In this document: positions 38,716-50,861 of the stretch, one piece after another
How positions within the stretch are numbered: position 1 is the first letter of the stretch
Layout of the letters: each line of letters begins with the position of its first letter
From: an uncultured Candidatus Saccharibacteria bacterium
Lineage (GTDB): Bacteria; Patescibacteriota; Minisyncoccia; UBA6257; 2-01-FULL-56-20
Direction of reading: 5' to 3'
DNA length: 51,777 nucleotides
NCBI GenBank assembly: GCA_964483915.1
Contig: CAZADL010000003.1
Coordinates: forward strand, 1 to 51,777
Notes under the pieces: generated by a model
The model's database searches: none
Seen by the model: only the letters and a program-made list of their open reading frames with translations
Told to the model about the DNA's origin: nothing
Position numbers and translations under genes: made by a program

Positions 38716-40722
38716 ATGATCAAAAAAATGAATGAACCGGCTGGGTCCAAGGATCGGCCACACATAAAACCTCCCGAGGTCCGCTTTCGGCCGAAGGTAA
38801 GCGAGGAATATCGGGGGAAATCTTCCCGTCCTTTGCGCCATTTTTCGACCGAAGACATCGGACGACAGAATTTTCCCGATAACCGCCCGCACCATTCCCG
38901 TTCTTCTCGCGGCAGCCATAGCCGGCCTCGCAGAATGCCGCCAGGGGCGGCAAGAAAAACCGCCTCCGATAACCGAAAATGGGCTTCGTCGTCAACCTCA
39001 GCACCGCATGGCATAGCAGGACAACTGCGCATCAAATCCTCCGCAGACGAAGCGTCCCGAAAGGAGGCCGTTCGCCTGGTTCCTTTGGGTGGGCTTGAAG
39101 AGATCGGACGCAACTGTTCCTTCCTTGAATATAAAAATGAGATCGTGATCATCGACGTCGGCCTCCAATTTCCCGAAGAAGAAACACCGGGCATCGACTA
39201 TATCATCCCGAACATCTCGTACCTTGAGAAACGGAAAGAAAACATTCAGGCGATCATTCTGACGCACGGGCACTACGACCACATCGGCGGCCTGCCGCAT
39301 GTTCTCGCAAAACTTGGCAATCCCCCGATCTATGCTACCTCCATTACAAAAGCCATCATTGAAAAACGACAGGAAGATTTTCCGAACGCGCCGAAGATGA
39401 ACGTTATCACCGTGAAAGGCGGCGAGGAAATCAAGCTGTCAAACTATTTCACGGCATATTTCTTTGGCGTACCGCACACGATACCGGAGACGACGGGCGT
39501 GCTCCTCAAAACGCCGATCGGCAATGTGGTGCACTTTGCCGACTTCCGCGTAGAATATGATGACGACGGCAACCCGCAGGGACTCGATGAATTCGCTGCG
39601 GTTGGCAAAATGGGCGTGCACACGTTCATGGTGGACTCGACCGCCGCGGAAAAGCCCGGCCACTCCATCTCGGAGAAAACCGTTGAAAAAAATCTGGAGG
39701 AAATTTTCAAGCAAGCGGAAGGTCGCGTGATCGTGGCGACCTTCGCGTCGCTCCTTACCCGCATCGGCGAAATCATCAAGATCTGCGAACGCCTTGATCG
39801 GCGGGTCGCTCTCTCGGGTTACTCCATGAAAACGAACGTGCAGATCGCACAGAACCTCGGTTTCATCAAGGCACATGAAGGAACGATTATTCCGATCGAA
39901 GAGGCGCACAAAATAAGAGACAACAAAATTCTTATCTTATCGACCGGCGCGCAAGGCGAATCGAACGCCAGCTTGATGAAGATCATCACGGGGGAGCATC
40001 GGCATCTCACGATCAAGCCCGGCGACACCTTTGTGCTTTCCTCGTCCGTCATTCCCGGCAATGAACGGAGCGTACAATCAGTGAAAGATAACCTCGCGCG
40101 CCAAGGCGCAATCGTCTACCATTCCGCGCTGGTTGATATCCATTCATCCGGTCATGCGCCGAAGGATGACGTCAAACTGGTCATTGAACTCCTTAACCCA
40201 AAATTTCTTATGCCGATCCACGGCTATTACTTCATGCGCGCCGCAAACGGGATTTCCGCGCGCGAAGTCGGCATTCCGAAAGAAAACATAAAACTGATGG
40301 ATAATGGCCAAGTCGCCGAACTGACCAAAAACGACTTCACGATCACCGAGGAGACCGTGCCGGCGTTTTACGTCATGGTTGACGGTTTGGGGGTTGGCGA
40401 TGTTGAAGAGGTGGTCTTGCGTGATCGGCGGGCCTTGGCGCAAGAAGGTATGCTCGTCATTATCACGACCATTGACCGCGACAAGGGCAAGCTCCTGAAA
40501 AATCCCGACATTATATCGCGCGGCTTCATCTACCTTAAAGAGAATCAAGACATTGTTGAAGAGATACGCAAGCGCGTACGGAACGTTACCCAACGTTTGC
40601 CAAACTATCGCGACATTGAACCGGATTATCTAAAAACCCTCATCCGTGATCAGGTCGGGCAGTTCATCTATAACAAAACCCGCCGCCGCCCGATGATTCT
40701 GCCGGTCATCATCGAGATTTAG
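38716..40722 (+). CDS. rnj: Ribonuclease J with a basic low-complexity N-terminal extension of about 117 aa
   Basis: VRLVPLGGLEEIGRNCSFLEY, HGHYDHIGGLP, beta-CASP and C-terminal domains are present. The core begins near aa 118. Confidence 0.85.
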   Translation: MIKKMNEPAGSKDRPHIKPPEVRFRPKVSEEYRGKSSRPLRHFSTEDIGRQNFPDNRPHHSRSSRGSHSRPRRMPPGAARKTASDNRKWASSSTSAPHGIAGQLRIKSSADEASRKEAVRLVPLGGLEEIGRNCSFLEYKNEIVIIDVGLQFPEEETPGIDYIIPNISYLEKRKENIQAIILTHGHYDHIGGLPHVLAKLGNPPIYATSITKAIIEKRQEDFPNAPKMNVITVKGGEEIKLSNYFTAYFFGVPHTIPETTGVLLKTPIGNVVHFADFRVEYDDDGNPQGLDEFAAVGKMGVHTFMVDSTAAEKPGHSISEKTVEKNLEEIFKQAEGRVIVATFASLLTRIGEIIKICERLDRRVALSGYSMKTNVQIAQNLGFIKAHEGTIIPIEEAHKIRDNKILILSTGAQGESNASLMKIITGEHRHLTIKPGDTFVLSSSVIPGNERSVQSVKDNLARQGAIVYHSALVDIHSSGHAPKDDVKLVIELLNPKFLMPIHGYYFMRAANGISAREVGIPKENIKLMDNGQVAELTKNDFTITEETVPAFYVMVDGLGVGDVEEVVLRDRRALAQEGMLVIITTIDRDKGKLLKNPDIISRGFIYLKENQDIVEEIRKRVRNVTQRLPNYRDIEPDYLKTLIRDQVGQFIYNKTRRRPMILPVIIEI

Positions 40723-40764: not shown

Positions 40765-41031
40765 TCAGAGCTGGAAAATAATCACGCGGATAAAATCTTC
40801 CAGTTTCCTTGAAATTTTATAGAACACCTCTTTACTTCGTTGCACTTTATCAAGAATACCAACTCTTTCTAAAAGTAAGAGGTGGCGAGATGCCGCCCGA
40901 AAGGACAGCCCCATTTCGCGCGCGATGCAACCGACATTTGCTTCGCTCACTCGCTTCAGATGGCTGAGTATTGCGAGCCGACGCCGATTTGCTAATGCTT
41001 TCAGATATTTCTCTAATTTTCTTTCGTTCAT
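40765..41031 (-). CDS. ArsR/SmtB-family transcriptional regulator
   Basis: LKALANRRRLAILSHL...VGCIAREMGLSFRAASRHLLLLERVGIL is a winged HTH. The start is set at MNERK, and alternative upstream ATGs at 41046 and 41085 fall in or beyond the palindrome. Confidence 0.75.
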   Translation of the reverse strand: MNERKLEKYLKALANRRRLAILSHLKRVSEANVGCIAREMGLSFRAASRHLLLLERVGILDKVQRSKEVFYKISRKLEDFIRVIIFQL

Positions 41032-41034
41032 GTT

Positions 41035-41066
41035 ATGGTGGCTCATTCTACCGAATGAGCCACCAT
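41035..41066. promoter_or_regulatory. 14-bp-stem palindrome immediately upstream of the arsR-like start; candidate operator
   Basis: The palindrome ATGGTGGCTCATTC-TACC-GAATGAGCCACCAT begins 4 nt from the ATG at 41031. Confidence 0.4.
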
Positions 41067-41106
41067 ATTCTGCCACGCCAAACATTAAATTTTTCTAAAA
41101 TCTTTT

Positions 41107-44100
41107 CTACGCCTTTTTTATTCCGATCCAAATTTTCTGGCCTTCCCATTTTCCGGATTCCTCCGCGTCAAATTTTTCGGAACGTGCGTACGAGATTGTT
41201 TTCGCGCCGATATCGGCCATAAATGTTTTCTCTTTCGTGCGCAGGGCGTTCGCAGCTTCTTCCGGCAAAACCGCGAAGATCGCTATGCGGTCCTTCGGCT
41301 GGAGCCCCGCTTTCTGCCGGAGCTCTTGCGCCATGCGCGCAATGTCGCGCACGATGCCTTCGGCCCGCAATTCCGGCGTGATCGCCGTATCAAGAACAAC
41401 TTCCCCTTTTCTCAATTTCGCACTGAGTTTTATCTCTTTTACATTCACCTCGTCAGCCAAGATTTTCAAAAGTTCTTTGTCGCGGGCAGTTTGCCATGTG
41501 CCCTTCGCAATTTCCATCTTCGCGAGCGGCTGGCGAATCTTAATCCCTACCTCCGCGCGTTTTGCAAGACCCTCGCTCGCAAGTTGGCGCATTTTTTTCA
41601 TACCTTCAAGCAACTTCATTCTCTCTCGAGGAGCCAAAAGGTGGCGTAATGATGGCCATGCTGCAAGGTGGATCGAAGGAGCTTCTTTTGTCATCTGTCG
41701 TTTCCTAAGTAGGCTCTGAAATATCGCCTCTGCAAGGAACGGCATGAAAGGGGCCGCAACCTTGCTTATCGTCAATAAACTTTCGAAAAGCGTATCAAAA
41801 AAAGCTTCATCGTGCCGTTTTCGGCTCCGTCGGAGATACCACGTCGACAGATCGTCAATATAATCTTGAATAGCGCGCGTGGCGTGAACTGTATCATATG
41901 CGTTCAGACATTGGGTCACCGCCTCATTCAATTCTGCGGTGCGCGTCAAAATCCACGTATCAAGAATTGTACACTTTTCACTTCTTTTCTTGTTTTTTTC
42001 TTTTTCGGGAAGATAGGTTGCAAAATATTTATAGACATTCACTAAGAGAAGTTCTACTTTGCGATATACCGCCTCGACGCCTTTTTCTGAAAAATTTAAG
42101 TTGTCTGCCTGCATCACAACAGAATTCATCAGATAGAACCTGATGCTGTCGGCCCCATATTTGTTGATCACAAGCCACGGATCCGGAAAGTTGTTTTTCG
42201 ATTTGCTCATTTTTGAACCGTCCCCGGCGAGGATCGTTCCTGTCGTCACCACGTTTTGAAACGGGGCTTTTTTGAACAAAATGAACGATATGACGTGCAT
42301 CACATAAAACCATGCACGAGTTTGCGCGATATATTCCGCAACAAACTGCGCCGGAAGATGCTTCTTAAAAGTATCTTTGTTTTCAAAAGGATAATGATAC
42401 TCCGCAAACGGCATTGACCCCGCTTCCATCCACGAATCGAATAACTCCGGGGTTCGGCGCATCGTACCGCGGCATTTAACGCATGGCAATGTTATTTCAT
42501 CGATGTATGGTCGATGCATGTCCGCTTCGCCGCCGTCATTTCGTGGAACGATTTCGAAATTAAGCTCGCGAATTTCGGCAAAGCTGATAAAATCGTTGGC
42601 GCGTTTTTCTTTCTCGGCGATCGCACGTTTCTCGCTCCACGCTTCTCCGACAGCGAAAAGCATCCATGTCGGATACTCATGCGTCACGATCAGAATATTT
42701 TTGCCTCCATATTTTTCCTCACAATCCTTCAGGAAATTCCATACGCGGGATCGTACATCCCTGAGGGATTCTCCGCCTTCCGGCCGTTTTTCAAAACGCG
42801 ATTGATAAGTCGGAAACATCTCGGCATACTTTTCGTCGCGGCGACCCATAAGCGTGGGCCCCAGATGGATTTCCTGAAGTCGCTTGTCGAGCACCACCTT
42901 TTCCCCTGTAAAAACCGACGCATCGATCTTTTCCGTTTCGTGTGTCCGCGTCACATCCGAAGCCACGATGATATCGAGCTTCATTTTTTTCTTCGCGAGT
43001 TCTTTTTTAAATTTCTCGATCGATGCCCCAACTTGCTTCCGCCCACGCGGCGTGAGATGTAAATATTTTCGCTCGCCGGAATCAAGAATGTCGAATATGT
43101 TGCTTTCGGCTTCGCCGTGACGCATCACCCAGTAACGATTCTTCGAACCACCCGCCCGAACCGAGAGCTCACGAAGTCCCCCGATCGCTTCTTCCTCACT
43201 GCATTTTTCGCACCTCCAAACCGGCAGAGGGTTTCCCCAGTAGCGGTTGCGCGAGATATTCCAATCCGGAGCCGCTTCAACGCTTTTTTGATAACGGCCG
43301 TATTTCAAGTGCGCGGGGAACCAATTGATCTCTTTTCTGTTTGACGCAATCAGTTTTTGCTTGATTTTTTGGACATTAATAAACCACGAGGGGATGGCGT
43401 TATAGAAAAGAACGTTTCCACACCGCCAACAAAATGGATAGGAATGGGTACTTCTTTCTTTTTTGAAAAGCAGCGGCTTCGGTTTGCGATTCTCCAGGTT
43501 TGAGATCACGAGCGCATCCGCTTTTTTAAAATATTGTCCGCGCAAGAACGTCGGAGCTTTGTCGTTAAAAACGCCTCGGTCGTCCAGCATCGGCACGACC
43601 GGTAATCCGATTTTCATGCCCAAATTATAATCGTCCTCGCCATAGACCACTGCCGTATGGACAATGCCAGTACCATCCGTCGTGGTAACAAAATCCGCGG
43701 GATACACTTTATAAGATTTTTCACTCTTTATTGCGGGGGTATCGAAAAGCGGTTCGTATTCAAGGCCAATGAGATCCATTCCGGAATACTGATAATTTAT
43801 CCTGCCGTCAGCCGCCAGTCCCAGATCCGAAAGCCGATCAACTGCGGCGATCAATATTTCCCCGCCCCGCGAAACTGGTTGGTAGCGTATATCCCGTCCA
43901 ACCGCAAGCGCCACATTTCCGGGTAATGTCCACGGCGTCGTCGTCCACGCCAAGAGATAAACATTCTCGCCTCGCAGATTTATTTTTTCTGGGTTTTTAA
44001 TTTTAAACTTCACGGTGACTGATTCCTCGATAACATCCTTATAGCTGTTATCCATCGCAACTTCGAAATTCGAAACCGGAGTTTCGCATCGGGGGCAGTA

Positions 44101-44700
44101 CAATAAAACTTTTCTTCCTTGATACACTAAATTTTTTTTATAGATTTCCTTAAATGCCCACCAGACCGATTCCATATAGTCGGTATCCATCGTTTTGTAG
44201 GAATCAGCGAATTCAACCCACCGCGCCATGCGACGGATCATTTTATCCCATTCATCGGCATAGCCCAGTACCATGCTTCGGCACGTCTCGTTAAACTTTT
44301 TAATGCCGATTTTCTCAATCTGCTTTTTACCGGAGATACCGAGTTTCCGCTCGACAATTTCTTCAATCGGCAAGCCATGACAATCCCATCCCCACCTGCG
44401 CCGCACATACCGGCCCTGCATTGTCTGATATCGCGGGATGACATCCTTGATGGTGGATGCCAAAATATGCCCATAGTGCGGAAGTCCTGTTGCAAAAGGC
44501 GGACCGTCGTAAAAAGTAAATGGCCTGTTTTTCCGCGTTTGCGACAAACTTTTTTCAAAAATATGATGCTCGTTCCAAAACGCCAAGACCCGCTCCTCAA
44601 GTTCCGGCAGATTGAACTCGCCTGCCAAAAAATCCGGCCGCGGAAAGACAGATTTTTTCTTACTCTTTGGTTCCTGCTTTTCCAGAGATTTTCTGACCAT
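41107..44700 (-). CDS. ileS: Isoleucine--tRNA ligase with an internal histidine-phosphatase-like insertion
   Basis: HIGH (PHYGH), the CP1 editing region, KMSKS and the anticodon-binding region are present. The length is 1197 aa because of an insert at about aa 520-722. Confidence 0.92.
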   Translation of the reverse strand: MVRKSLEKQEPKSKKKSVFPRPDFLAGEFNLPELEERVLAFWNEHHIFEKSLSQTRKNRPFTFYDGPPFATGLPHYGHILASTIKDVIPRYQTMQGRYVRRRWGWDCHGLPIEEIVERKLGISGKKQIEKIGIKKFNETCRSMVLGYADEWDKMIRRMARWVEFADSYKTMDTDYMESVWWAFKEIYKKNLVYQGRKVLLYCPRCETPVSNFEVAMDNSYKDVIEESVTVKFKIKNPEKINLRGENVYLLAWTTTPWTLPGNVALAVGRDIRYQPVSRGGEILIAAVDRLSDLGLAADGRINYQYSGMDLIGLEYEPLFDTPAIKSEKSYKVYPADFVTTTDGTGIVHTAVVYGEDDYNLGMKIGLPVVPMLDDRGVFNDKAPTFLRGQYFKKADALVISNLENRKPKPLLFKKERSTHSYPFCWRCGNVLFYNAIPSWFINVQKIKQKLIASNRKEINWFPAHLKYGRYQKSVEAAPDWNISRNRYWGNPLPVWRCEKCSEEEAIGGLRELSVRAGGSKNRYWVMRHGEAESNIFDILDSGERKYLHLTPRGRKQVGASIEKFKKELAKKKMKLDIIVASDVTRTHETEKIDASVFTGEKVVLDKRLQEIHLGPTLMGRRDEKYAEMFPTYQSRFEKRPEGGESLRDVRSRVWNFLKDCEEKYGGKNILIVTHEYPTWMLFAVGEAWSEKRAIAEKEKRANDFISFAEIRELNFEIVPRNDGGEADMHRPYIDEITLPCVKCRGTMRRTPELFDSWMEAGSMPFAEYHYPFENKDTFKKHLPAQFVAEYIAQTRAWFYVMHVISFILFKKAPFQNVVTTGTILAGDGSKMSKSKNNFPDPWLVINKYGADSIRFYLMNSVVMQADNLNFSEKGVEAVYRKVELLLVNVYKYFATYLPEKEKNKKRSEKCTILDTWILTRTAELNEAVTQCLNAYDTVHATRAIQDYIDDLSTWYLRRSRKRHDEAFFDTLFESLLTISKVAAPFMPFLAEAIFQSLLRKRQMTKEAPSIHLAAWPSLRHLLAPRERMKLLEGMKKMRQLASEGLAKRAEVGIKIRQPLAKMEIAKGTWQTARDKELLKILADEVNVKEIKLSAKLRKGEVVLDTAITPELRAEGIVRDIARMAQELRQKAGLQPKDRIAIFAVLPEEAANALRTKEKTFMADIGAKTISYARSEKFDAEESGKWEGQKIWIGIKKA

Positions 44701-44801: not shown

Positions 44802-46640
44802 ATGATCGAAAGCGAACTACGCGCTGCTATCAAGAACGCCGCGGCGGAGGCCGATTTCCCCGTCGGCGATAACGACATCAAACTGGAACATCCGGCGCTT
44901 CCCAAGCACGGCGATTATGCCACCAATCTGGCGCTTGCGCTCGCGAAAAAAATCCGCAAACCGCCCATGGAAATCGCGCGGTCCATCGCCCGTGGCATTT
45001 CTTCTCCTCTCGTTGCGAAGGCCGAAGCCGCTGCGCCGGGCTTTATCAATCTCTCGCTCTCCGACAACTTCCTAAAAGAAGAAACGGCACGGATCATAGC
45101 GGCCGGCCCGCGCTATGGCGCACCGCAGAAAAAAAATCAACGCGTGCTCGTGGAGCATACCCAGATCAACCCCAATAAGGAACCGCACGTCGGGCATCTC
45201 CGGAATGCCGTGATCGGGGACTCGCTCGTGAAGATCTATCGCTTGGCCGCCTATGACGTGAAGGCGCTCTATTATCATAACGATGTCGGCCAACAGATCG
45301 CGTCGATCCTTCTCGCCGAGAAAAAAGTTTTTATCCGGCGTGACGGATTTCCGACCACTATGGCCTGGGCATCAGCGGCATATGCAGACGTAGAAAGAAG
45401 AATGGAAGACGAAAAAGAATTAAAAAAAGAGAGGGAGAGAATGCAAATTGAAATCGCGAAACAAACCACGCCGGAAGCTGCGCGTGCCGAGGCACTCACG
45501 CTCGAGATACTTCACAAAACGCTCAACGTTCTCGCAAAACTCAACATTCCCTATGATCTCATCGTCCGCGAGAGCGATATTTTAAAAGGAAACCTCTGGG
45601 AGAAAACGTTCGAACTCCTGAAGACAAAGCCGGCGTTCTATCAGGTGACGGAAGGCGAAAAGAAAGGATGCTGGCTCATCAAGATGCCGGACGCCGAGGA
45701 CAAGATCGTTGTCCGTTCAAACGGCGTACCAACCTATGCCGGCAACGATATCGCGAATCACCTCTGGAAATTCGGCATTCTCCCCGACTTCCGGTATGAA
45801 AAGCTCGATTGGAAAACACAGACAGAGCCGCTTTATATGACGGTCTCGGAAGGCGGCGAAGCGCGGCGCGATTTCACGCGCGCCGATGCCATCGTGAACA
45901 TCATCGACCAGACGCAAACCTATCCGCAGGAAAGCGTCATGGAATCGCTCCGCGTCCTTGGCTTCACAAAAGAAGCGGAACATTACCATCACGTGAACTA
46001 TGGCTTCGTTTATCTTTCGCGGAAAACGGCGGAACAGCTCGGCATGCCGGTCGAGGAAGGCGCCTCGCAGGTGAAGATCAGCGGCCGAAAAGGAATAACG
46101 GTTTCCATAGAAACATTTCTGGAAAAAATGAAGGAGGTCCTCCGCGAAAAATACGGCGAGTACGAATCGCTCGCGGCGGTCGCGACCGGCGCGATCAAGT
46201 TCGAGCTTTTGAAATACAATACTTATCAGGATGTCGTGTTCGATCTCGATGCGGCGCTCGACATTCACGGCATGAGCGGTCCCTACGTCCAGTATGCCGC
46301 AACGCGGGCAAAAAACATTCTTGCGAAATCGGATGGTAAATGGCAAGTGGCAAATGGCAAATGGCCGGCAGCGGACAAACTGCCTGAAGCGGAAAAAACG
46401 ATCCTCCGCACGTTGTATCGTTTTCCTAAAGTTGTCGCGCGCGCGCTCGGCGATTTCGCGCCGCACTATCTCTGTCTCTATCTTTTTGAACTCTCACAAC
46501 TATGGAACTCGTTCTACAATGAGAACCGCATCATCGGTTCGGACCGGGAAGCGGAACGGCTCCTCCTCACGAAGGCCGTGGCGCACGTGCTCGAAAACGG
46601 CTTGGGACTTCTCGGCATCGAATCCCCGGAAAAAATGTGA
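44802..46640 (+). CDS. argS: Arginine--tRNA ligase
   Basis: An N-terminal Arg_tRNA_synt_N-like domain, the HIGH-type NPNKEPHVGHLRN motif and a DALR anticodon-binding C-terminus, at 612 aa. Confidence 0.92.
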   Translation: MIESELRAAIKNAAAEADFPVGDNDIKLEHPALPKHGDYATNLALALAKKIRKPPMEIARSIARGISSPLVAKAEAAAPGFINLSLSDNFLKEETARIIAAGPRYGAPQKKNQRVLVEHTQINPNKEPHVGHLRNAVIGDSLVKIYRLAAYDVKALYYHNDVGQQIASILLAEKKVFIRRDGFPTTMAWASAAYADVERRMEDEKELKKERERMQIEIAKQTTPEAARAEALTLEILHKTLNVLAKLNIPYDLIVRESDILKGNLWEKTFELLKTKPAFYQVTEGEKKGCWLIKMPDAEDKIVVRSNGVPTYAGNDIANHLWKFGILPDFRYEKLDWKTQTEPLYMTVSEGGEARRDFTRADAIVNIIDQTQTYPQESVMESLRVLGFTKEAEHYHHVNYGFVYLSRKTAEQLGMPVEEGASQVKISGRKGITVSIETFLEKMKEVLREKYGEYESLAAVATGAIKFELLKYNTYQDVVFDLDAALDIHGMSGPYVQYAATRAKNILAKSDGKWQVANGKWPAADKLPEAEKTILRTLYRFPKVVARALGDFAPHYLCLYLFELSQLWNSFYNENRIIGSDREAERLLLTKAVAHVLENGLGLLGIESPEKM

Positions 46641-46654
46641 CCGCGCTCTGCGCG

Positions 46655-46680
46655 ATCATCCTGAACGTAGCGAAGGATCC
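46655..46680. repeat. Single-hairpin relative of the GTCATTCTGAGCG element
   Basis: ATCATCCTGAACGTAGCGAAGGATCC can be compared with GTCATTCTGAGCGACAGCGAAGAATCC at 26631. Confidence 0.4.
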
Positions 46681-46701
46681 CTTCATAAAATTAGCCGCAG
46701 C

Positions 46702-47154
46702 ATGACATCCACAAACTTTAAAACCATCGCAGAAAACCGGCGCGCCCGCTTCGACTACGATATCAAAGAGAAATTTGAGGCTGGCATTGAACTCAAAGGT
46801 TATGAGGTGAAAAGCGTCAAGAGCGGGCGGTTTCAGATCGCAGGCGCGCAGGTTCTCGTCCGCCGCGGCGAAGCGTGGCTCGTCAATTCCCACATCCCCC
46901 CGTACCAACCGAAAAACATGCCTGCGGACTACGCCGAAGATCGTGCGCGAAAATTATTGCTCACGAAAAACGAAATAAAGGGCGTCATGGGAATGTTGTA
47001 TGATAAAAGTCAGCGGTTGATTCCCCTGCGCGCATATCTCAAAAACGGCTTTGTGAAGCTTGAACTCGGCCTCGGCCGGCTGCGCAAAAAATCTGACAAG
47101 CGTGAGGTTCTCAAAAAGCGCGCCCATACCCGCGAGATGCGGGAAAGTTTGTAA
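46702..47154 (+). CDS. smpB: SsrA-binding protein SmpB
   Basis: IAENRRARFDYDIKEKFEAGIELKGYEVKS... is typical of SmpB. The start is set at MTSTNF. Confidence 0.9.
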   Translation: MTSTNFKTIAENRRARFDYDIKEKFEAGIELKGYEVKSVKSGRFQIAGAQVLVRRGEAWLVNSHIPPYQPKNMPADYAEDRARKLLLTKNEIKGVMGMLYDKSQRLIPLRAYLKNGFVKLELGLGRLRKKSDKREVLKKRAHTREMRESL

Positions 47155-49928: not shown

Positions 49929-50861
49929 CTAGTTGCTGTTCCGCTGAACACTGAAGCTGGTTCCGTTATTTCCAAGCGACGAAGGCATCGCTTTAGGAAC
50001 GCCCGATGAATTCACCATGGTGATGGCATCGTTTTTCCAGAGCGAGTTGTTGATGGAACCAGTGTAGCCGTTCAATGTCACTTGGGCGTTCGCGAACTGG
50101 ATCGTGCCGAAATTCGCGAGAGGCAGCACGCCGCCGCTCCAGGGAGCTTCCATGATCCATTCCGCTGATTGGCGCAGAGCGTTTGACTTCTGCGACGTTG
50201 AAAAACTCTTGCCAGTCGTCGTATCAACAATTGACAGTTGGAATTTGTTGCCGGAGAGGTACCGCACTTCGGCATTCATGACGTCTCCCGCCTTGACCGG
50301 TAAATTGATTTTGAAGCTTGGCTTCGGATACATCTCATACCATACATAGTAGCTGGCATGGCCGTTCATACAGTCGTGCTCGGTGCCAAGCTGTTCCACG
50401 GAATTGTCGCTATACCCATCAATGCCCACCCAAGCGGAAGAATACGTGTTCGTACTGCCGCAGGTAAGCGCAGGTACCGTCCAACCGCCCTTCACGTCGC
50501 TTACCGCATTGCTCTGCGGGTTCGTTAGGTTCGTCTCTGCCGCATAACCCGCCCAGTTCAAGCTTGTTCCATTTTTATACCTGATGCGCGGCGCGAACGT
50601 TGCTGAATCAGAGGCGTTTTGGTCAAGCCCATTGTTCAGCTGGGTCACGTCGGCCGAATCCAGGTTCTCTGAGGCGGACATCAAACCCTGATCGTTCGTG
50701 ATAACTGGTTCTGTATTGGTTGTACCGGCCATTGGCTGTCCAGAATTTACCGCCGTGTTGTTTGATCTATTGGCAGTAAAGAAGTATAGCCCGATAAGTA
50801 TGGCGATCACAACGAGCGTTATGGCAATAACTTGTGCCGATCCTTTGTGATTGTTGCTCAT
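49929..50861 (-). CDS. Membrane-anchored peptidase G1 (eqolisin / peptidase A4)-like protein
   Basis: After an N-terminal TM helix come NWAGYAA, SSAWVGIDGY...VEQLGTE and SAEWIMEAP, matching the Gln/Glu-dyad eqolisin fold pattern. Confidence 0.6.
   Translation of the reverse strand: MSNNHKGSAQVIAITLVVIAILIGLYFFTANRSNNTAVNSGQPMAGTTNTEPVITNDQGLMSASENLDSADVTQLNNGLDQNASDSATFAPRIRYKNGTSLNWAGYAAETNLTNPQSNAVSDVKGGWTVPALTCGSTNTYSSAWVGIDGYSDNSVEQLGTEHDCMNGHASYYVWYEMYPKPSFKINLPVKAGDVMNAEVRYLSGNKFQLSIVDTTTGKSFSTSQKSNALRQSAEWIMEAPWSGGVLPLANFGTIQFANAQVTLNGYTGSINNSLWKNDAITMVNSSGVPKAMPSSLGNNGTSFSVQRNSN

Follow-up and report, generated by a model that had tools for sequence, protein, structure and literature searches.

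The subject of this analysis is the ileS gene in a 51,777-nucleotide stretch of DNA (contig CAZADL010000003.1 of GenBank assembly GCA_964483915.1, forward strand), hereafter called the window, from an uncultured Candidatus Saccharibacteria bacterium. The gene occupies positions 41107..44700 of the (-) strand, on which all the features of the gene given below are also located, and encodes a type-2 isoleucyl-tRNA synthetase (IleRS) of 1197 amino acids (aa) in which a complete histidine phosphatase domain is nested. An initial annotation, made from the letters of the window, had proposed an internal insertion of about 200 aa at 42535..43143. Both the 1197-aa open reading frame (ORF) and the insertion were confirmed, the latter by alignments to the Thermus thermophilus IleRS and to relatives that lack an insert, and the proposed range corresponds to aa 520-722 (KNRYWVMRHGE...VPRND).

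The synthetase and the place of its insert

The assignment of ileS is based on the ORF, on the TIGR00392 equivalog, on Pfam and on PDB sequence and fold matches. In NCBIfam, the ileS equivalog TIGR00392 scored 803.5 bits (cutoff 621.4), the interruption notwithstanding. The Pfam domain tRNA-synt_1 was matched in two separate stretches, the best of them at aa 38-514, and was accompanied by Anticodon_1 (aa 914-1060) and by DUF5915 (PF19302, aa 1101-1196). The C-terminus is thus a DUF5915-type domain, a type-2 trait, and not the zinc-binding C-terminus of type-1 enzymes. The PDB sequence scores also place the protein among the type-2 enzymes, with 719 bits for T. thermophilus IleRS (1ILE; E-value 8e-215) and 680 bits for Priestia megaterium IleRS2 (8C8V; E-value 7e-203), as against 294 bits for the type-1 enzyme 1FFY. 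With these two bacterial type-2 enzymes (1ILE; 8C8U/8C8V) the window IleRS shares HIGH, KMSKS, the CP1 editing domain, the CP3 zinc knuckle, the anticodon-binding domain and DUF5915. The top matches by sequence and by fold were 1ILE, 8C8V and 8WND, all of them type-2 or eukaryote-like IleRSs. The full-length AlphaFold2 (AF2) model, which has a mean predicted local distance difference test score (pLDDT) of 87.9 and a predicted template modelling score (pTM) of 0.82, was superposed by Foldseek on 8C8V, 8WND and 1ILE with target-normalised template modelling (TM) scores of 0.8-0.9.

The HIGH and KMSKS signatures and the zinc-knuckle cysteines had initially been described as intact, and a comparison with 81 homologues bears this out. 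In the HIGH signature HYGH (aa 75-78, 44467..44478), the first three residues (H75, Y76, G77) do not vary and H78 is conserved to at least 90%, and in KMSKS (aa 830-834, 42199..42213) the residues K830, S832, K833 and S834 are invariant. The zinc knuckle of CP3 is formed by CEKC (aa 497-500, 43201..43212), in which C497 is invariant, and by CVKC (aa 740-743, 42472..42483), in which C740 and C743 are invariant. The threonine-rich motif TTTPWT of the CP1 editing domain (aa 253-258, 43927..43944) lies in a stretch that is invariant from W252 to L259, and the further editing-site residues H348 and D357 are invariant as well, so that the expected editing residues are all present. The FDSW motif (aa 754-757, 42430..42441), at which the second Rossmann half begins, is also invariant. 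Neither of the MupA and MupB mupirocin-resistance models (NF000257 and NF000258; 693 and 679 bits, cutoff 1900) reached its cutoff, nor did the model of a GNAT-containing IleRS (NF040702; 275.8 bits, cutoff 1999), and Pfam found no acetyltransferase domain in the window protein. Judged by its sequence, the window ileS probably encodes a working housekeeping type-2 IleRS.

In the alignment to T. thermophilus IleRS, query residues 26-516 correspond to residues 5-480 and query residues 727-1047 to residues 489-818. The inserted segment (aa 517-726, 42523..43152) contains a complete branch-1 histidine phosphatase domain and a return linker, and at the place where T. thermophilus IleRS has about 8 residues the window IleRS has about 210, forming a separate enzyme domain inside CP3. 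The query span 489-760 measures 272 aa, compared with 63-97 aa in insert-less relatives. The initial placement of the insert, in the Rossmann-fold half that precedes KMSKS, was refined: the insert is not simply in the Rossmann half, and its site is the CP3 subdomain, between CEKC and CVKC and hence inside the zinc knuckle, which in T. thermophilus IleRS belongs to CP3 (PMC7191050).

The segments on both sides of the insert have counterparts in yeast IleRS (ScIleRS), where a CP2-3 linker segment and D527/W529 line the pocket for tRNA-A76 and reveromycin (PMC7955072). N-terminal to the insert, the CP2-3 linker APDWNISRNRYWG (query 477-489) corresponds to the pocket-lining yeast segment; C-terminal to it, D755/W757 of FDSW correspond to ScIleRS D527/W529, being equated by motif (PMC7955072). 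Because these flanking elements correspond to the yeast pocket segments, the insert thus appears, from sequence topology combined with the two published structural descriptions (PMC7191050, PMC7955072), to be anchored by elements of the acceptor-end pocket. The return path consists of about 45 C-terminal residues (a helix at 690-700, a short strand and a PRNDxGE motif) that lead into the HRPYID segment of CP3. The insert-bearing IleRSs have the same junction sequences, N-x-Y-x-x-M-R-H-G-E ... P-R-N-D-x-G-E-x-D-x-H-R-P-Y-I-D. In one insert-bearing relative of Paceibacteria type (L020) all four zinc-knuckle cysteines of CP3 are absent (WRNPKSG ... LFDTDG); with the phosphatase domain in place, the enzyme can therefore do without the zinc site.

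Fold and catalytic residues of the nested domain

The motifs on which the initial annotation had based its proposal were all found, namely WVMRHGE (aa 524-530), SDVTRTHET (aa 581-589), LQEIHLG (aa 608-614) and ILIVTHEYP (aa 669-677). The profile search gave a significant match to Pfam His_Phos_1 (PF00300) at aa 524-683 (42652..43131; E 2.6e-24, 86.4 bits, cutoff 21.7), and the insert scanned alone was matched with E 1e-25 and 91 bits. When aa 513-727 were modelled alone with AF2, the segment folded confidently (pLDDT 90.9, pTM 0.89), and in the full-length model the 10-residue blocks of the insert average a pLDDT of 82-96. In the model, strand 522-527 precedes the RHG motif as branch 1 of the superfamily requires, and the profile match, the motif set and the alpha/beta fold agree with this membership. 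The insert is a branch-1 histidine phosphatase domain and, according to the models, should be able to fold by itself.

A Foldseek search with the model of the insert returned 279 PDB matches at E<=0.001, and the best 50 of the 279 were all histidine phosphatases or cofactor-dependent phosphoglycerate mutases (dPGMs). The top matches were the phosphoserine phosphatase PspA (4IJ6, 4IJ5), a mycobacterial hydrolase (6S2Q) and PhoE (1H2E), followed by a histidine-family phosphatase of the riboflavin pathway (9MMH) and by GpgP Rv2419c (4QIH), and then by TIGAR and dPGM/BPGM; TM scores were 0.6-0.7 and identities 20-26%. A PDB sequence search with the insert led to the same set of phosphatases. With the small-cap branch-1 phosphatases PspA (4IJ5), PhoE/YhfR (1H2E), CobC (6NRU/6E4B) and GpgP Rv2419c (4QIH) the insert has in common the fold, the R-H-N-R-E-H set of residues, a length of about 200 aa and, separating the acid Glu from the GES motif, a short cap region (aa 611-643); it differs from them in its low identity (20-26%) and in being nested in another enzyme rather than free-standing.

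The nested domain therefore most resembles the small phosphomonoesterases (PspA, PhoE, GpgP, CobC), and less the phosphoglycerate mutase equivalogs. The initial description as "phosphoglycerate-mutase-like" is correct for the fold and fails for family membership, since the dPGM equivalogs score below their cutoffs. In NCBIfam, a true phosphoglycerate mutase was rejected with NF038349 (61.4 bits, cutoff 225), TIGR01258 (17, cutoff 81.7) and NF002339 (27, cutoff 316). Membership in the PspA, CobC and SixA equivalogs was likewise rejected (49.5, 48.4 and 19 bits against cutoffs of 350, 162.9 and 74.5), as was membership in GpmB (35.7, cutoff 261) and in RNase H/acid phosphatase (PRK07238; 59.7, cutoff 326).

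Conservation of the catalytic residues was evaluated in 261 homologous domains, taken from 252 IleRS sequences and aligned to a profile of the insert. In the RHG motif (43114..43122), comprising R527, the predicted phospho-acceptor H528 and G529, the Arg and the His are each present in 259 of the 261 domains; both exceptions are alignment gaps, and the one that was inspected (P0206) reads VRHGD. N534 (43099..43101), at the phosphate-pocket Asn position of RHGxxxxN, is Asn in 220 domains. The second phosphate-pocket Arg, R585 of the SDxxRT motif (42946..42948), is conserved in 260, and the second phosphate-pocket His, H674 of the THE motif (42679..42681), in all 261. At the position of the predicted general acid, E610 in the L-x-E-x-x-x-G motif (42871..42873), 247 domains have Glu and 11 have Asp. 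Furthermore, E644 is kept in 258 domains and R652 in 256. The Arg/His/Arg/Glu/His set is therefore near-invariant, and the region is not an ordinary lineage-specific IleRS segment devoid of the catalytic His and Arg residues.

The remainder of the insert is far more variable, the 261 domains being 23-48% identical to that of the window. One insert-bearing locus (L001) is 68% identical in the synthetase core and 48% in the insert, and for the Paceibacteria group the corresponding values are 43-55% and 27-43%. Fast overall divergence combined with a frozen catalytic set is, at the level of sequence, the signature of an enzyme and not of ballast. The initial annotation had left open that the insert might be a degenerate structural module; this option, like that of neutral ballast, is disfavoured because the catalytic residues are frozen while the insert diverges faster than the core.

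Distribution, repeated acquisition and genomic context

The survey of related sequences showed that the insert is widespread. PF00300 was found in 120 of the 120 best database homologues (52-79% identical to the window IleRS), the source names of which include Minisyncoccia, Paceibacterota, Pacebacteria, Jorgensenbacteria, Liptonbacteria, Doudnabacteria and Patescibacteria. The names under which such proteins appear in public records are "class I tRNA ligase family protein" and "isoleucyl-tRNA synthetase". In an exhaustive search of clusters at 50% identity, the alignment runs through the insert without a break for about half of the best 150 representatives, and the full-length ones among these have about 1100-1270 aa. 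Additionally, GTDB species representatives were scanned by full-length alignment with patterns specific to this IleRS type, and the insert was present at 36 of the 80 IleRS loci among the matches listed, the 80 loci being a sample and not a census. The 36 insert-bearing loci among the matches listed carry Paceibacteria/Parcubacteria-type, Nomura-, Taylor- and Wolfebacteria and Peri/Peregrinibacteria labels, and many of them, from third-party (TPA) assemblies, are labelled coarsely as "Saccharibacteria". The 44 insert-less loci among the matches listed include Magasanik-, Doudna-, Gottesman-, Falkow- and Staskawiczbacteria, DPANN archaea, spirochaetes and Latescibacteria. An assembly chimera, which the initial annotation had named as a possible source of error, was rejected: more than 250 sequences from independent assemblies carry the insert with conserved junctions, and the GC content shows no break across it.

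In a neighbor-joining tree of the IleRS core the insert-bearing enzymes are non-monophyletic; the tree is weak because the distant loci, with or without the insert, are all 42-55% identical to the query in the core (68% for L001). The insert at the CP3 site, whose junction sequences are shared, may have had either a single origin followed by losses or several origins.

The related IleRSs differ in where His_Phos_1 is inserted: at least four sites are in use, and some enzymes have two copies. Peregrinibacteria/Peribacteria-type IleRSs of 1465-1487 aa (L044, L045, L060, L069 and P0210) contain two tandem His_Phos_1 domains inside CP3, in a segment about 450 aa long (in L044, the ORF of which has 1487 aa, at about aa 525-975); the second domain follows an LHKxxD segment and has a canonical RHGxxxWN motif, and these enzymes have lost the zinc-knuckle cysteines. 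In five others (P0243, P0226, P0257, P0244 and P0247) the domain is located between FDSW and KMSKS. In seven (P0224, P0183, P0231, P0242, P0147, P0257 and P0244) it is found after KMSKS, at about aa 700-1070 and directly before the anticodon-binding domain, and these copies form branches of their own in the domain tree. In the neighbor-joining tree of the His_Phos_1 domains, the copies cluster largely by insertion site, which fits separate acquisitions followed by vertical descent.

Some related metagenomic IleRSs harbour, in addition to His_Phos_1, further nested enzyme domains with intact catalytic motifs. NUDIX domains with canonical NUDIX boxes are present at the start of CP1 in P0182 (aa 226-343) and P0206 (aa 270-396), and GNAT domains in P0243 and in P0226, a protein of 1859 aa. 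P0188 has, alongside His_Phos_1, a P-loop AAA_18 kinase-like domain (aa 747-863) with an intact Walker A motif GACGAGKT, and P0242 has a serine hydrolase domain (PF06821, aa 562-734) with GHSLG. A long insertion in P0264 (1397 aa) has no Pfam match.

The neighbours of ileS in the window are genes for RNase J, an ArsR-like regulator, ArgRS and SmpB, and in the relatives they include ArgRS, GlyRS and a recurrent 195-aa ORF. The small ArsR/HTH_20-like regulator (40765..41085, (-) strand) follows ileS directly on the same strand, at a distance of 21 nucleotides from the ileS stop codon, and is possibly co-transcribed with ileS; its score of 23.4 bits is below the Pfam cutoff of 27. The RNase J homologue (38716..40722, (+) strand) has beta-CASP and RNase J C-terminal domains, and its metallo-beta-lactamase domain is preceded by an N-terminal extension (about 120 aa) that is very basic and Ser/Arg/Pro-rich. 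As listed, the SmpB ORF (46294..47154, (+) strand) shares about 350 nucleotides with the 3' end of argS (44802..46640) and its SmpB domain starts only at aa 145; the true start is probably at a downstream codon, the alternative being an unusual N-terminal extension. An ORF at 49929..50861 on the (-) strand matches Peptidase_A4 (eqolisin-type glutamic peptidase, E 1.2e-36), a family that is mostly fungal and uncommon in bacteria.

Possible roles of the nested phosphatase

The interpretation that we favour, with a probability of about 0.7, is that in this ultra-small bacterium of the Patescibacteria (candidate phyla radiation, CPR) a working IleRS is physically coupled to a probably active, independently folding small-cap phosphomonoesterase of the PhoE/PspA/CobC/GpgP type, which replaces the tip of CP3, a loop that joins the two Cys pairs of the zinc knuckle. 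The predicted steps of catalysis follow the chemistry of dPGM and PhoE in the histidine phosphatase superfamily: the phosphate, held by R527, R585, H674 and N534, would be attacked by H528 to give a phospho-histidine intermediate; E610 would donate a proton to the leaving group, and water would then free the phosphate. Since the insertion site differs among lineages, with four or more sites and sometimes two copies, selection would act on physical or stoichiometric coupling to IleRS (co-localisation or co-expression) and not on one exact geometry. The same variation of site makes a precisely positioned protein loop a slightly less likely substrate than a diffusible small molecule or a large, flexible one such as tRNA. 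Our working guess for the substrate is either a small molecule of phosphorylated nucleotide type or a phosphate at a tRNA terminus, encountered at the synthetase or close to it.

Several observations weigh against this interpretation. The insert exceeds the cutoff of no NCBIfam equivalog, and a substrate class is for this reason not assignable from sequence. The insert is not consistently basic (median isoelectric point 6.4, 10th-90th percentile 5.4-9.4), which leaves a nucleic-acid-binding surface unsupported. Clustering of the gene neighbourhoods of the 80 loci gave no functional hint beside the insert-bearing ileS genes, only syntenic housekeeping genes, and the full-text literature searches found no description of a fusion between IleRS and a histidine phosphatase. 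Finally, a non-catalytic sensor of a phospho-ligand would keep the same conserved residues.

A more specific proposal, which we consider improbable, is that the phosphatase acts on the tRNA itself, stripping a phosphate from the 3' end of tRNA-Ile (a 3'-phosphate, an opened 2',3'-cyclic phosphate or a toxin-added pyrophosphate) to permit charging, as an end-healing or anti-toxin step. The insert would be suitably anchored for this, between the A76-pocket segments, that is the CP2-3 linker ARDWNVSRNRYWG (query 477-489) and D755/W757 (PMC7955072). The NUDIX domains nested in other relatives have intact boxes, and the combination of His_Phos_1 with a P-loop kinase-like domain in P0188 is reminiscent of the kinase-phosphatase enzymes of RNA end healing. 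T4 Pnkp is an example of the latter. The four or more insertion sites, one of them beside the anticodon-binding domain, speak against the proposal, and therefore no fixed geometry to the CCA end is required. The phosphatase domain is not consistently basic, ligase or toxin genes do not recur beside ileS in the 80 neighbourhoods, and to our knowledge no histidine phosphatase acts on a tRNA end.

It also seems quite improbable that the nested domain is a non-catalytic module, whether a pseudo-enzyme that senses a phospho-ligand and regulates IleRS, a dimerisation or scaffold element, or neutral structural ballast. Many branch-1 histidine phosphatases are dimeric, CPR proteins are known for carrying many lineage-specific insertions, and the tandem copies in the Peregrinibacteria-type enzymes would suit such a role, as would the fact that a sensor too would conserve the phosphate-binding residues. 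However, nearly all of the 261 domains retain the nucleophile His and the acid Glu/Asp in addition to the Arg residues that bind phosphate, the other nested domains likewise have intact catalytic motifs, and repeated acquisition at different sites is unexpected for neutral ballast.

Very unlikely is a role in self-protection, in which the phosphatase, like the nested GNAT, NUDIX, kinase and esterase domains, would inactivate an inhibitor or reverse a modification of IleRS (e.g. a phosphorylated isoleucyl-adenylate mimic, or HipA-type phosphorylation of the KMSKS serine): all domain types nested in the lineage belong to small-molecule- or protein-modifying classes, each with an intact motif, the GNAT MccE and the serine peptidase MccF are detoxification enzymes for aminoacyl-nucleotide antibiotics, and in GltX and TrpS the KMSKS-type loop is phosphorylated by HipA/HipT kinases, but this support is purely circumstantial, the PADLOC defence models gave no match for the window IleRS, kinase or toxin neighbours are not recurrent at the 80 loci, and we know of no such inhibitor or kinase for these organisms and can name no natural IleRS inhibitor that bears a phosphomonoester.

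To return to the favoured coupling of a working IleRS to a small phosphomonoesterase, nested domains as such are already known in class Ia synthetases. The CP1 editing domain, the leucine-specific domain of LeuRS and the IleRS with a nested GNAT for which a curated model exists (NF040702) follow the same principle, a folded domain in a surface loop with the catalytic body intact. Unlike these, the insert of the window IleRS is a phosphatase with no known link to proofreading of the amino acid or the tRNA, and a phosphatase in IleRS is undescribed in the literature searched. A functional link between isoleucine charging and dephosphorylation can be argued, because independent acquisitions of this kind of domain, at several positions, occurred in related lineages.

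A wider generalisation, which we regard as unlikely, is that the IleRS of CPR bacteria offers a platform on which a toolkit of small enzymes is docked, often a histidine phosphatase and in other cases a NUDIX, a GNAT, a P-loop kinase or a serine hydrolase, with possible jobs in repairing or unblocking the end of tRNA-Ile, in reversing toxin modifications or in destroying antibiotics that mimic isoleucyl-adenylate; the phosphatase would then be a new quality-control or self-defence activity, comparable in status to the CP1 editing domain.

Aminoacyl-tRNA synthetases are highly conserved and well studied, and new catalytic domains in their core are rare; editing domains found in the past proved central to the fidelity of translation. 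In the present case, what appears to be an active phosphatase is retained inside an essential synthetase throughout a bacterial radiation with minimal genomes. Its substrate could reveal a new link of translation to nucleotide or RNA-end metabolism, and could also reveal a new mechanism of self-protection in organisms that are not yet culturable alone.

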